A stretch of 64,000 nt of DNA from Eledone cirrhosa. Lineage: Eukaryota. Below the pieces are notes generated by a model that was not told where the DNA came from, made no database searches, and saw only the letters and a program-made list of their open reading frames with translations. The translations under genes were made by a program, and so were the position numbers. Positions 11,687 to 26,725 of this stretch are shown in pieces. The stretch spans positions 63,426,001 to 63,490,000 of the forward strand of contig OZ024747.1 of assembly GCA_964016885.1 (NCBI GenBank). Reading direction: 5' to 3'. How positions within the stretch are numbered: the first letter of the stretch is position 1; each line of letters starts with the position of its first letter.

Positions 11687-11887
11687 TTATTAAAATAACA
11701 GATTAAAGTTTAAGCAAAGAATCGCTGCTTTCACCCTTAACCGTTAAGGGTGAAAGCAGCGATTCTTTGCTTAAACTTTAATCTGTTATTTTATTAAATA
11801 TTTGCCCTACGGTTCTTATATATCTGATATATATTTGTCCTTATCGAGCCCTCTTTGGATTTTAGTCGTCAAATTTATTATTATTAC
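11687..11887 (+). mobile_element. Foldback short element in (TA)n (family P1)
   Basis: Near-perfect palindrome of about 55-bp arms centred on CCG at 11741-11743, plus an about 85-bp unique tail. Homologous to 26501-26725, about 56180-56248 and 63288-63402. Confidence 0.75.
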
Positions 11888-12957
11888 TATATATATATAT
11901 ATATATATATATATATGTGTGTGTGTACATATATATATATATATATAATTATCTTGTTATCTTGCTGTGTGTGTGTATAAGTATGTGTGTGTGTGTATTT
12001 CAATTAATTTATTGAAGTTGCATTTGCACAAAGGCAACACAGTTGAATTATATGAGGTAAGTCTCTATACACTCAAGATTCAAGAAATGCATTCTTTGTT
12101 TCAGAGGGGACTCTTAATCTATTGAAAAGAAAAACCAGGAATAATACTTTAGACGGTGTGTTTGTCTTTTACGGTAGACAATAACCACTACAACAAATAG
12201 TAAGGAAAAAAAAATTAACCAGGCTGTAATAGTTTCTGATGAACCAACTTTTAGTACAGTCACAGTTACATATTCACATTAACAGTAATTGCATGTCCAA
12301 TTCTGACTGGAGTATCTTTCCCAGCAGTTCAATTTGGCTCTTTCAGATATCGCTCCTTGCCACTATAGTAGAACAGTGGCTATACAGTATCCCATCACTT
12401 TAAAGAGGAAGGTCGGATTACATTTTTGAGGGGGTATTTCATTGTGTTAGTAATGCGTTATTCTTTCAGACTCCAATCAAGCTCTCAAACTATTAGAATG
12501 TTGGGCTTGAAATCGTGAGGTTGTGAGTTCGATTCTTGGACCTGGTGATGTGTTGTATCCTTGAGCAAGACACTTTATTTCACATTGCTCCTGTTTATTC
12601 AGCTGTAGAAATTAGTTGTGACGTCACTGGTACCAAGCTGTATCAGCCTTTGCTTTTCCCTTGGACAACATCAGTGCCATGGAGAGGGGGAAGCTTAATT
12701 AAAATGTCTGGCATTTGACTTTTGAAAAGATAATGCAAAATAAAATTTAAAAACATTGATAGCCTTTACAAAAATGATTACTGAAGGAGTAATGGTGCAA
12801 ATTGTGAGTACCATTTGGAAAAATATTGTTATATTTGGAGAGGGTCATGTTGTCTTAATATTCCAATGATAATAATAATAAAATTCACTTCAGTATTTCT
12901 TTATATTTCTATAAATAATATAGCTGGCATTGATTGACCAACAGTTAAAAATATAAA

Positions 12958-13282
12958 TATAATTTCTCAAAGTTTTTTCATCACAGATTTTTCTGTGATT
13001 TCCTCCCATTGTATTTGGGGAAAAAATTGGGATTATCTAGGTTAGAAATAATTAAGAATTTTAGCCACTCCTTCAAAATTCTTCAGTAATGAAATGAAAT
13101 AGAGCATATTTCATTAATAATGTGGCCATGAAGAGGTTCAGAAATGATTTTATGTAAGCCTATTTAAGGTTTTTTAGTTTGATCTCATAATGTTTTTATT
13201 CAGATAATCCCAATTTTTTCCCCAAATACAATGGGAGGAAATCATAGAAAAATCTGTGATGAAAAAACTTTGAGAAATTATA
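12958..13282. repeat. 81-bp inverted repeat (12958-13038 and 13202-13282)
   Basis: Reverse-complement match with one mismatch seen and an about 163-bp spacer. Confidence 0.9.
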
Positions 13283-14804
13283 GTAAGTTAGCATATGTTG
13301 AAAGATTTCAATTTGAATAGAAATTATTTAAAATTGATGGGGTTTGTTTTTTTATTGACACATAGCTAGTTTTTGGCAGGAAAAAAGTTAAACAGAAGTT
13401 CTCAGTTAATGAAAATAGTTGGTGCTGACATGGAAGATTGGAAATTAATAAAGGAAATTTAAATTATTTAAAATAATCTTAGGATGGAATATGGAAGTAT
13501 AAAAATGAAATAATTGAAATATAATAAAATAATTATTTATATTTAAATGTCTGTGTTATATGTATGTATATGAATGCATGTATGTGTGTATATATATATG
13601 TGTATGTGTATGTGTGTATATATCTATAAATGTATATGTGTGCATATGTGTTTGTGTATATATGTATGTGTGTTTATATATATGTATATGTATGTATATG
13701 TGTATGTGTACATATATATATGTGTGTATGTTTGCATATGTGTATGAGTATGTACATATATATGTATATGTGTGCATATGTGTATGTGTATATGTATGTA
13801 TGCGTATATGTATGTGTATATATATATATATATGTATATGTATGCGTATATGTATGTGTATATATATATATATATGTGTATATATATATGTATGTATATA
13901 TATGTGTATATATATATATATATGTATATATATGTGTATATATATATATATATAAGTATGCATATGTGTATGTATGTATATATATATATAATAATATATG
14001 TGTATATATGTGAACTTAGAACATATTTGCTAACATAAGAGATACGTTTTCATTCCTCTATATATATATATTATTATATGTGTATGTATAATAATGTATG
14101 TATATATAATTATTATATTATATGCGTATGTAGGTATGTGTGTGTGTGTGTATATATATATATATATATATATATATATATATATGTATGTGTGTGTATA
14201 TATATATATATATATACACACACACACATACATACACACATAAAGAGCTCTTCATAAAGCGAAGGGGGAGACTTTCAGTGTGATATGATGCAATGAAAGG
14301 AAATAGCAATAGAAAAATAGGAAACAAGGAAGAATCTCATTGATGACCTGTCAACAGGAATAATATGAAACCTGGGGAAATAGATTGAGATCTTTTGAGT
14401 CACATATAGCTGCAAGTCGTATAACCTGAATAAACATTACATGCCATCCAGGCAGTATTTCTATTTTGGAATAGGGAAAATTACACAGGTCTTGTACAAT
14501 TAAAGAAAAATAAGTGTTAAAAAAACTAATTATTATTTGTTTAAACATTTATCTTTTTTGTGGTATCCTGTCACCCTTCCATGTTGTCAATGAACTTTAT
14601 CTCTCTCACATCCTCTCTCTCCTTATCTATAGTGGTCTATCTATCTATTTATCTAACTATCTATCTGAATTTGTTCTATCTGTTTGGCTTAGAGGTTAAG
14701 TTGTTGAACTCAGGATCATATAGTTATGGGTTCAATCCTTGAACCAGGAACTGTATTGCTTTGAGCAAGGGGCTTCGTTTTGTTTTGCTCCTCATGATAG
14801 GCCA

Positions 14805-15180
14805 CTGAGTATATCAAGTACATTTTATCATGGTACCAGCACTACCACTTTACAGAGTATACTGAGTACATTTATCATGGCAACAGTACAACCACTTTAC
14901 TGAGTATACCAAGTACATTTTATCATGGCACCAGCACTACCATTTTACAGAGTATACTGAGTACATGTTATCATGGCAACAGTACAAACACTTTACTGAG
15001 TATACTAAGTACATTTTATCATGGTACCAGCTCTATCACTGTACTGAGTATACCGAGTAAATTGTATTAAAGTGCCATTGCTACTACCTTACAAAGTGTA
15101 CTCAGTGCATTTTATTATGGTGTCAGTATTACCACTTTACAGAGTGTACTGGATATAATTTATTGTAACACCAGCACAAG
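14805..15180. repeat. About 46-47-bp minisatellite with alternating dimer structure
   Basis: Repeated GTACATTTTATCATGG(T/C)ACCAGCACTACCACTTTACAGAGTATAC units. A degenerate relative lies at about 45590-45760. Confidence 0.85.
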
Positions 15181-24272: not shown

Positions 24273-24497
24273 CTTGAGATTTGTGGTTGTTCTGTTCTTC
24301 ATAAGTTACTGCTTCAGGGTTACGTTTACATTACTGTCTAGCAGTCATCAACTTTCATTAATTGGATAATATGTGTGTGTATATATATATATGTATATAT
24401 GATTATAATTATGATGATGATATATATATCACCATTATGATCTTCCCACATCTATAATTCCATGCTTGAATTGGTTGGACAAAAATCATATACCCTT

Positions 24498-26040
24498 TCA
24501 TCATCATCATCATCATCATCACCGTTTTACGTCCGTTCTTCCACGCTAGCATGGGTTAGACGGGTTGTCCTGTTGTGGGCAGTGTCTGGTCGGCTGACCA
24601 TGCCTTGCTCATACAGGAACTGATCTGGCTTGATTTCTACAGCTGGATGCCCTTCCTAACACCAACCTCATTTACAGTGAGTGCTGGGTGCTTTTTCGTG
24701 GCGCCTACACGTCCACTTTACAGTGTGGGCTGGGTGCTTTTTTGCCGTGGCACCTCCACGACCACCTTGCGGTGGGGGGGGGGGGGGGCATATTGTTTAT
24801 ATGCTTCAGCATGTACCCATGGGAGGTCGGGTACCCTGTATTACTGCGTGACGCCAGAAGTCACGGTCGTGTGTCATTGACTTTGAGAGGTGTAGTTGGG
24901 TAAGGTCGGCTTTTATCACCTCATCCCAAGTCATCTTGGGTCTCCCCACTCCGCGGTTTCCATCAACTTCTAGTGCTCTGCACCTTTTTATGCAGCTGTC
25001 ATCCTTCATACGCATCACATGTCCATACCAGCGTAACCGCCTCTCCTGCACGCAGCATTTGATTCCTCTTATGCTCAGTCTCTCTCTCAATTCATTTATG
25101 CTTTGTCGTTCACGTATATTACTGTTACACATCCATCGGAGCATGCAGGCTTCGTTTCTCTCTAATCTACGTAAGTCTTCCACCTTCAGCGCCCAGGTCT
25201 CACTACCATGCAACATCGCTGTTCGGATACACGCATCATACAGTCTGCCTTTCATTCTGAGGGAGAAGCCTTTTGCAGCTAGCAGTGGTAGTAGTTCCCT
25301 AAACTTCTTCCATCCCGTTCTTACCCTAGTTATTGTACTTTCTGAGCACCCACCTCCGTTGCTAATTCGGTCACCTAGGTAGCAGAAGCTGTCTACTGTT
25401 TCTACAGGGCCCTCCCAGAGATTGGTGGTACTTGTTTCCTGTGGCTGTTTGCTTGCTGTTTCAGCACAGCTGCTGCATGTGAATCCTACATTCTTAATTA
25501 AGCTTCCTGAGATCCCGCTACATCTCTTGTGTACCCATTGTTTGCATTTGGGGCAAAGAATGGAGTTCCTACCTACACCTTTCCTACATACTGAGCAAGG
25601 CCATTTCCCTGAGGGGATCTGGGTTCTGTTTTCTCGTCTACTTATAAGGACCTTAGTCTTTGTCATGTTGACTTTGAGGCCCTTTCTCTCTAGTCCCTGC
25701 TTCCAGGTTTGGAATTTATTCTCTAGTTCTACCATAGATTCAGCTATGAGTGCGAGGTCATCAGCATACAGGAGTTCCCATGGGCATCCGGTCTTAAACT
25801 CCTCCGTTATTGCCTGCAGGACTATGATGAACAGGAGAGGGCTAAGAACAGAGCCCTGGTGGACCCCAACCTGTACGCTAAATTCCTCGCTATACTCATT
25901 GCCAATCCTAACTTTGCTGACTGCTCCCCTATACATGGCTTGTACCGCTTTCACAAGCCATTCATCTACTCCTAGTTTTCTAAGAGCCCACCAGATTACT
26001 GCACGTGGAACTCTGTCAAAGGCTTTCTCAAGGTCGACAA
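24498..26040 (-). mobile_element. 5'-truncated RTE-clade LINE (subfamily 2): RT C-half plus 3'UTR ending in (ATG)n
   Basis: The minus-strand ORF 24806-25954 extends upstream to VDLEKAFDRVPR at about 26040. It has QGSVLSPLLF, YADD, YLG and RRLRWYGHV motifs. The (CAT)n tail is at 24498-24520 on the plus strand. Confidence 0.95.
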
Positions 26041-26500
26041 ATGTATATATGTATATATATATGTATATATATATGTGTGTGTGTCCATATGTGCATGTGT
26101 GTATGCATGTCTATATATATATATCATTATCATCATCACCATTTAATGTCCATTTTCCACGCTAGTATGAGTTAGATGAGTTCTCCCATTGTGAGACAAG
26201 CCAGGTTAGATGATGATGACTTGCTCATGCAGAACTGATATATATATATATATATATATATATACTAAAACAAAGCCACCATATTTGCTATTAACTAAAT
26301 GAGTGCACTCTGAACAACTGATTTCAGGTGCATTGCTGTAATTCAGCAGATTCATTGAGTGAGCTAGATGTTGGGTGGGTAACGTTGACTTAATACCAGC
26401 GATCTTCATTACTTTTATATTATATATATATATATATACAACGATGAATGGTTACTCCTTCATTACATGTGTGTATATATATATATATATATATATATAG

Positions 26501-26725
26501 TTATTAAAATAACAGATTAAAGTTTCAGCAAAGAATTGCTGCTTTCACCCTTAATGGGATCTTCTGAAGATCCCATTAAGGGTGAAAGCAGCGATTCTTT
26601 GCTTAAAATTTAATCTGTTATTTTAATAAATATCTGTTCTATGGTTTTAGATATTCATATATATATATATATTATCGTTATTGAACCCTCTTCAGATCCT
26701 AGTCTTCACATTTATTATTATTACT
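26501..26725 (+). mobile_element. Foldback short element (family P1) with hammerhead core
   Basis: Palindrome centred at 26565. The right arm reads CTGAAGA-T-CCC(ATTAA)GGG-T-GAAA and has the same tail as the 11.7-kb copy. Confidence 0.75.

Follow-up and report, generated by a model that had tools for sequence, protein, structure and literature searches.

Short head-to-head insertions of an abundant, likely Penelope-like repeat in Eledone cirrhosa, and their junctions around a hammerhead-like motif

The stretch of DNA considered here (the window) comprises 64,000 nucleotides (nt) of Eledone cirrhosa, positions 63,426,001 to 63,490,000 of contig OZ024747.1 (assembly GCA_964016885.1), and contains four copies of a repeat that carries a hammerhead-like motif. 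The window is AT-rich (GC 0.29-0.45), with plentiful (TA)n and (CA)n runs, and all four copies are solitary, there being no tandem array within it. We lean towards reading them as insertions that are very short and truncated at the 5' end, made by an abundant repeat that is likely a Penelope-like element (PLE), and each probably consisting of two separately primed complementary DNAs (cDNAs) joined head to head. Family positions are given throughout in copy 2's window coordinates, in which the family has an inner fixed 3' end at 26633 and an outer one at 26725. The parts of the four copies are:

11683 to 11741, reverse strand: copy 1, inverted arm from the inner fixed end back to the stem II loop (58 of 59 pairs complementary)
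11742 to 11801, forward strand: copy 1, centre base and forward arm (by sequence comparison)
11802 to 11888, forward strand: copy 1, one-sided tail of 87 nt, then (TA)n
26501 to 26564, reverse strand: copy 2, inverted arm (61 of 64 pairs complementary)
26565 to 26633, forward strand: copy 2, centre base (T; A in the family), then the forward arm as far as the inner fixed 3' end (26633)
26634 to 26725, forward strand: copy 2, one-sided tail of 92 nt, ending at the outer fixed 3' end (26725)
63286 to 63368, reverse strand: copy 3, inverted arm of tail sequence only (family 26638-26723; blastn E 8e-16)
63371 to 63403, forward strand: copy 3, forward arm, beginning in the stem III loop and stopping just short of the inner end (family 26595-26627; blastn E 1e-7)
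56135 to 56147, reverse strand: copy 4, likely a remnant, in inverted orientation, of the end of the tail (exact low-complexity 13-mer)
56150 to 56238, forward strand: copy 4, forward arm of a diverged copy through the whole hammerhead-like motif, with native 5' sequence

Four copies and two fixed 3' ends

Copies 1 and 2 are palindromes with separate 1-nt centres, as the first-pass annotation had described them. Copy 1 spans 11683-11801 with arms of 59 nt around position 11742 and one mismatched pair of 59; copy 2 spans 26501-26629 with arms of 64 nt around 26565 and three mismatched pairs of 64. The same one-sided tail follows both, the right arm plus tail being about 82% identical between them, and both are flanked on either side by TA-rich microsatellite. 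Copy 3 (63286-63403) has the different inversion junction ascribed to it earlier: an inverted tail piece is fused to a forward piece, and the two arms share no sequence. Copy 4 had been taken for an unfolded copy, which is probably wrong. Its start at 56135, where a (TA)n flank ends, is an exact reverse complement of the closing bases of the tail, and the copy then runs forward through the whole motif. The 13-mer concerned occurs elsewhere in the window only at copy 2's tail end (26714), and it is of low complexity; from this sequence match, copy 4 is probably a second non-overlapping inversion. An inverted, 5'-truncated, head-to-head partner is thus present in copies 1-3 and probably in copy 4.

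The same anatomy recurs outside the window. Two contig sets from one sample, S1 (X1 and X2), and two sets of restriction-site-associated DNA (RAD) reads from samples S2 and S3 (X4 and X5) were matched to 26548-26770 at 80% likeness, giving 7409 and 8607 records from the contig sets and 10335 and 10602 from the RAD sets; contig depth was left out as a measure of copy number. The family is thus represented by thousands of reads and contigs, and exact-pattern scans for it returned 0 loci in metagenome contigs, viral contigs and prokaryote genome contigs. From the matches, the best 24 of 664 loose-end rows, 15 of 57 joints and 12 of 86 rows of intervening letters were used, and joints in reads were detectable only from 26562 rightwards. 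Two 3' ends about 90 nt apart are fixed: the family breaks off into (TA)n at 26633 in 1877 (X4) and 1882 (X5) reads and at 26725 in 519 and 582 reads, so that (TA)n loose ends at both fixed ends mark insertion into AT-rich or microsatellite targets.

Among the loose-end rows used, the biggest class in all four sets is sequence extending 5' past 26562 (130, 138, 2378 and 2630 records in X1, X2, X4 and X5), the consensus of which resembles copy 4's native 5' part. The ratio of these 5'-extending ends to arms that cross the inner end is 0.59-0.84, varying with how tail-bearing arms are counted. Just 5' of 26562, on the 5' side of helix I, the loose ends carry a poly-T tract followed by AG, which looks like a splice acceptor; a similar stretch lies at 59299-59312. 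In Drosophila virilis Penelope, an intron end maps to the 5' side of helix I (PMC4209133).

That the palindromes might be foldback artefacts of assembly or of whole-genome amplification is hardly credible, even though no long read or single contig in the sets compared crosses the locus. The arms have diverged from one another in both copies, the arm ends coincide with a fixed site of the family, and head-to-head joints are present in raw reads of S2 and S3 as well as in contigs of S1.

A hammerhead-like motif with adenine at position 4

Read against the hammerhead core motif, the sequence at copy 2 contains a candidate hammerhead-like core of type I topology:

26564 to 26604, forward strand: type I hammerhead-like core, C3 to N17 (candidate)
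26572 to 26582, forward strand: stem II of 3 base pairs (bp), within the core
26587 to 26603, forward strand: stem III, within the core

The first-pass annotation had read CUGAAGA at 26565 as the family's sequence. Of the reads that cover 26565, 3186 of 3302 in X4 and 3502 of 3621 in X5, about 97%, carry A, as does copy 4, so that the family core reads C-A-G-A-A-G-A, with A at hammerhead position 4. Copy 2's T is the complement supplied by its inverted arm; because about 97% of family reads have A there, CUGAAGA in copy 2 is a by-product of the inversion.

The family thus departs at position 4 from the conserved core CUGANGA...GAAA...UH. Copies 2 and 4 allow helices I-III to be drawn, and the minimum-energy fold lacks the full three-helix topology. 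Single-strand folds of the motif are no more stable than those of shuffled sequences, the stability of stem II being -3.1 kcal/mol and that of the cDNA-sense arm fold about -2 kcal/mol. Rfam gave no hammerhead match at gathering level, nor at E values up to 10 on copies 2 and 4; the matches it returned were generic hairpin models below their own thresholds. According to Perreault 2011 (PMC3088659), most core changes sharply reduce activity; a U4C variant is cited there, and 'U4A' is absent from the main text. Judged by its sequence, the family motif is hammerhead-like, self-cleavage is doubtful, and the A at position 4 may mark either an inactive relic or an unusual core variant.

Solitary minimal-hammerhead motifs with a canonical CTGA-N-GA and GAAA also occur in the window, at 18126-18326, 51000-51320 and 61652. 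The first two sit in short inserts between (TA)n runs, where the copies at 18202 and 51196 span the whole motif unbroken. The 3' end of the 18202 family is repeated at 26951-27025 on the reverse strand.

Junctions and the origin of the two arms

Ten two-arm junctions could be compared, namely the four window copies and six decoded from the read listing (26564/26605, 26566/26576, 26576/26686, 26614|26603, 26617|26609 and 26578|26616). Three are exact palindromes, four have arms offset by 8-41 nt, and three have non-overlapping arms (copies 3 and 4 and one read junction). One of the exact palindromes, 26614|26603, is centred on 26608 and was found in 26 and 36 reads. Two truncating cDNAs started at 26725 and 26633 would yield all three classes, whereas pure foldback would yield the exact class only.

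We propose the following sequence of events for such an insertion. The element's endonuclease would cut both strands of AT-rich DNA, as suggested by published PLE biochemistry (PMC11167929). Reverse transcription would then be primed by one target strand at 26725, the end of the tail, and by the other at 26633, the inner start. Both cDNAs would stop early, at a roughly constant rate, and their two 3' ends would be joined, in many cases over 1-5 nt of microhomology. Because the cDNAs share the same polarity, they could anneal only at self-complementary spots, and an exact palindrome with a 1-nt centre would result when both ends meet at one such spot, as at 26565 and 26608.

The alternative put forward in the first-pass annotation is that the hammerhead hairpin halts reverse transcription and the cDNA, folding back, primes itself in a U-turn, the centres therefore clustering in the core. 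We regard this as unlikely. Self-priming has been proposed for PLE palindromes (PMC3846280), the arms of copies 1 and 2 do end within 1 nt of each other, and 26608 could form a stem of 4 bp closed by a loop of 3 nt. Foldback cannot, however, produce the seven of ten junctions whose arms are unequal or non-overlapping. It also fits poorly with the details of the exact palindromes. If stem II were the primer, a 5-nt loop would be expected, and none is seen; the centre of copy 1 is 1 nt, with a single base pair at the centre and no native stem to prime on; and the 26608 centre lies 3' of the cleavage position. Together with the weakness of stem II and of the cDNA-sense arm fold, and with the minimal-hammerhead copies at 18202 and 51196 that run through their motif unbroken, this argues against a hairpin that stalls or self-primes the polymerase as a rule.

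The centre base of copy 2 points the same way: its T is the letter of the arm without a tail, which disfavours a U-turn of the tail-primed strand, since that would leave A, barring later substitution. The 26565 centre is itself recurrent, a point on the side of the U-turn: a mirror arm at 26555 is present in 44 reads (22 starts) of X4, 51 reads (15 starts) of X5, and 34 and 50 contigs, which carry the family letter, unlike copy 2. This mirror arm amounts to about 1.4% of reads at 26565, roughly reckoned to exceed the background rate of ends several-fold. Among the 1-nt-centred self-complementary sites of the arm, the two strongest are 26565 (TTC-A-GAA, 3 bp) and 26608 (TTAAA-C-TTTAA, 5 bp; outside the core), and these hold two of the three exact palindromes, which points to annealing of two cDNA ends. 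Microhomology of at least 2 nt was found at four of seven overlapping junctions, against 17% of random pairs (binomial p about 0.02, calculated by hand); this count and that of the palindrome sites come from a small, selected, post hoc set.

On this basis we tentatively offer a more specific idea, which we hold to be possible and somewhat less probable than not: that the two cDNAs, each primed from a different strand of the target and at its own start site, pair directly with each other where the terminal repeat is self-complementary over a short stretch, with the single central mismatch repaired either way. Junction hotspots would then be predictable, with one falling at the 5' boundary of the hammerhead core, and the head-to-head junctions would record the last step of Penelope-type integration.

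Twelve of the 15 joints used were discarded. Eight touch the (TA)n run of the tail itself, to which flanking microsatellite probably matched (26633/26671, 26633/26672, 26672/26725, 26672>26562, 26672>26566, 26674>26576, 26562/26672 and 26619/26675), and four could not be read as head-to-head (26597>26562, 26632>26691, 26651/26700 and 26725>26651). The joint 26597>26562, seen in 65 and 110 RAD reads, is a short, direct and partial duplication that takes in some 30 nt of native sequence from upstream and may be a partial-tandem copy.

Whether the ribozyme core sets the breakpoint can be asked of the same junctions and of read depth. Of the 47 positions in the compared stretch that leave arms of at least 25 nt, 41 fall in the 41-nt core, so that two centres inside it are no more than chance would give. 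Half of the 20 junction ends lie in the core (26564-26604), and five at 26574-26578, in or beside the stem II loop. Three of these five come from reads matched to a copy with a private mismatch at 26575, and apparent ends can accumulate where the reference copy has mismatches (26565, 26575 and 26608). RAD depth over 26564-26627 was also fitted with a geometric model, a rough one that assumes the aligner and uniform read starts. Without end trimming, a hotspot at 26572-26582 beats a constant rate (root-mean-square deviation, rms, 0.018 against 0.036); with simulated trimming at the known mismatches, a constant truncation rate of 0.4-0.6% per base (rms 0.018-0.020) equals the hotspot (0.016-0.020), and a model with no truncation fits worse (0.05). 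Modelled read-through of the core is 0.63-0.80 in the better untrimmed fits and 0.64-0.90 with trimming, or about 65-90% of arms overall. A mild excess of ends at stem II is thus neither shown nor excluded, and the earlier claim that breakpoints land in the ribozyme core is not supported as a rule. Because most arms run through the hammerhead-like motif, the motif probably does not determine where the fold falls; since it lies only 30-70 nt from the inner start, a break inside it is the default for the shortest copies. The annotation's wider proposal, a de novo palindrome at each insertion, holds in part: the evidence supports an inversion that arises anew at each insertion, likely through reverse transcription, and does not support the ribozyme hairpin as its cause as a rule.

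Another possibility is that the palindromes arise after or apart from reverse transcription, through host repair of a single-arm insertion, either by microhomology end joining or by fold-back repair at the cut. The microhomology at several junctions and the fragile, AT-rich (TA)n targets would suit this, but copies 1 and 2 and about 1900 reads per run all have the inverted arm halting at 26633, a site that repair would not know. We therefore think host repair quite improbable.

Several points weigh against the reading as two joined cDNAs of a PLE. A Pfam scan of 148 of the window's 182 frames found no reverse transcriptase or GIY-YIG of PLE type; it returned two open reading frames of long interspersed nuclear element (LINE) type with RVT_1 and PHD, and one weak zinc finger. 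The tail of 87-92 nt exceeds the published 30-40 nt. The exact centre of copy 1 has only 1 bp of microhomology, and the model does not explain why its arm ends fall within 1 nt of each other; junctions 26566/26576 and 26578/26616 have 0-1 nt of microhomology. The five ends at 26574-26578 and the better untrimmed fit of a stem II hotspot belong on the same side, as do the uneven weighting of loci in RAD reads and the partial coverage of the joints and of the letters between them.

Other repeats and comparison with known systems

A second family in the window is built in the same way (59222-59430, and 9100-9226 on the reverse strand). Its palindrome has arms of about 75 nt and is centred within a poly-A/poly-T run, extends on one side by about 60 nt and is bordered by (TA)n to left and right; a shorter copy has a single arm. 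It shows no complete hammerhead core, and its centre lies outside any recognisable ribozyme. An inverted repeat of 160 nt (61969-62128 and 62277-62436; 99% complementary) surrounds a 148-nt spacer with (TA)n, and hammerhead-like words lie to its right at 62577 and 62606. A small palindrome at 51570-51659 has unique arms of about 28 nt around a (TA)n/(CA)n centre. The two 5'-truncated LINE-type reverse transcriptase frames with a PHD-like insert (Pfam RVT_1, PHD) occupy 24806-26110 on the reverse strand and 43061-44500 on the forward strand, and their DNA is about 75-80% alike. A repeat resembling a short interspersed nuclear element (SINE), with a tRNA-derived head (Rfam tRNA match at 58147), is abundant (56253-56592, 58122-58368, 10467-10813, 28469-28805, 30423-30671 and 36997-37198), and one copy of it adjoins copy 4.

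The repeat might not be a PLE at all but a miniature inverted-repeat transposable element (MITE), the 3' end of a LINE or SINE with twin-priming inversions, or a monomer of a retrozyme that lacks long terminal repeats. In LINE-1 twin priming, two primed cDNAs are joined with microhomology to give an inverted 5' part, and copies 3 and 4 resemble its non-overlapping inversions. In addition, no coding sequence is linked to the family, and the hammerhead-like core is atypical. Overlapping arms, however, are not known to be a product of LINE twin priming; in our family the second start is fixed and the arms often overlap, giving palindromes. The family also has two fixed 3' ends and no poly(A), and its variable centres and one-sided extension are unlike a MITE with fixed terminal inverted repeats and a conserved interior. 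Retrozymes are defined as tandem arrays (bioRxiv 10.64898/2026.07.22.740005), and the solitary copies of the window do not form head-to-tail units that each carry a type I hammerhead. We consider a non-PLE origin highly improbable and, going by anatomy, membership of the PLEs likely.

Among known hammerheads, the closest comparison is with the type I and minimal hammerheads of metazoan PLEs (Cervera and de la Pena 2014, PMC4209133). The likeness lies in a type I topology near the 3' end, an extra base after A9, motifs that are single or 100-700 bp apart on opposite strands, and a splice-acceptor-like stretch 5' of helix I. The family differs from them in its A4, the lack of a G10.1-C11.1 pair, the 3-bp stem II, a non-palindromic stem III of 4-5 bp, and U at position 17.

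As an insertion, the repeat resembles the unit described for endonuclease-bearing PLEs (Craig et al. 2021, PMC8557442; Arkhipova et al. 2013, PMC3846280), which has a head-to-head inverted, 5'-truncated copy, palindromes at the inverted junction, a tail at one end and AT-rich or simple-repeat targets. Here the tail is longer, copies are about 120-230 nt, and a target-site duplication is unreadable in (TA)n. Had the claim first made for these palindromes been true, ribozyme structure would be tied to the integration step, and the data do not support this as a rule. What remains is an ordinary stub family of PLE type, and both palindromes and the idea of self-priming were already published in 2013 (PMC3846280). 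A literature search, from which subscription journals mostly fell outside, found no title or abstract opening on PLE inversion junctions mapped against a ribozyme. In the PLE literature available to us, the origin of head-to-head inverted ends is still an open question, and a family of such high copy number, with its two sharply defined start sites, lends itself to a simple test of U-turn self-priming against two-cDNA annealing, the discriminating features being arm offsets, microhomology and the identity of the centre base.

The nearest mechanistic parallel is PAc/Poseidon, the Anolis carolinensis PLE studied by Frangieh et al. 2024 (PMC11167929), in which both target strands are cut and extended at AT-rich DNA. 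The parts of that paper available to us give no mechanism for the head-to-head junction. PAc/Poseidon is known from biochemistry and our family from its sequence alone, and the spacing between the two ends is longer here. In PAc/Poseidon, reverse transcription starts at two internal sites whose spacing equals the tail, with uncleaved RNA as template, and our family shares with it two fixed ends downstream of a hammerhead motif, AT-rich targets and copying through an uncleaved motif.

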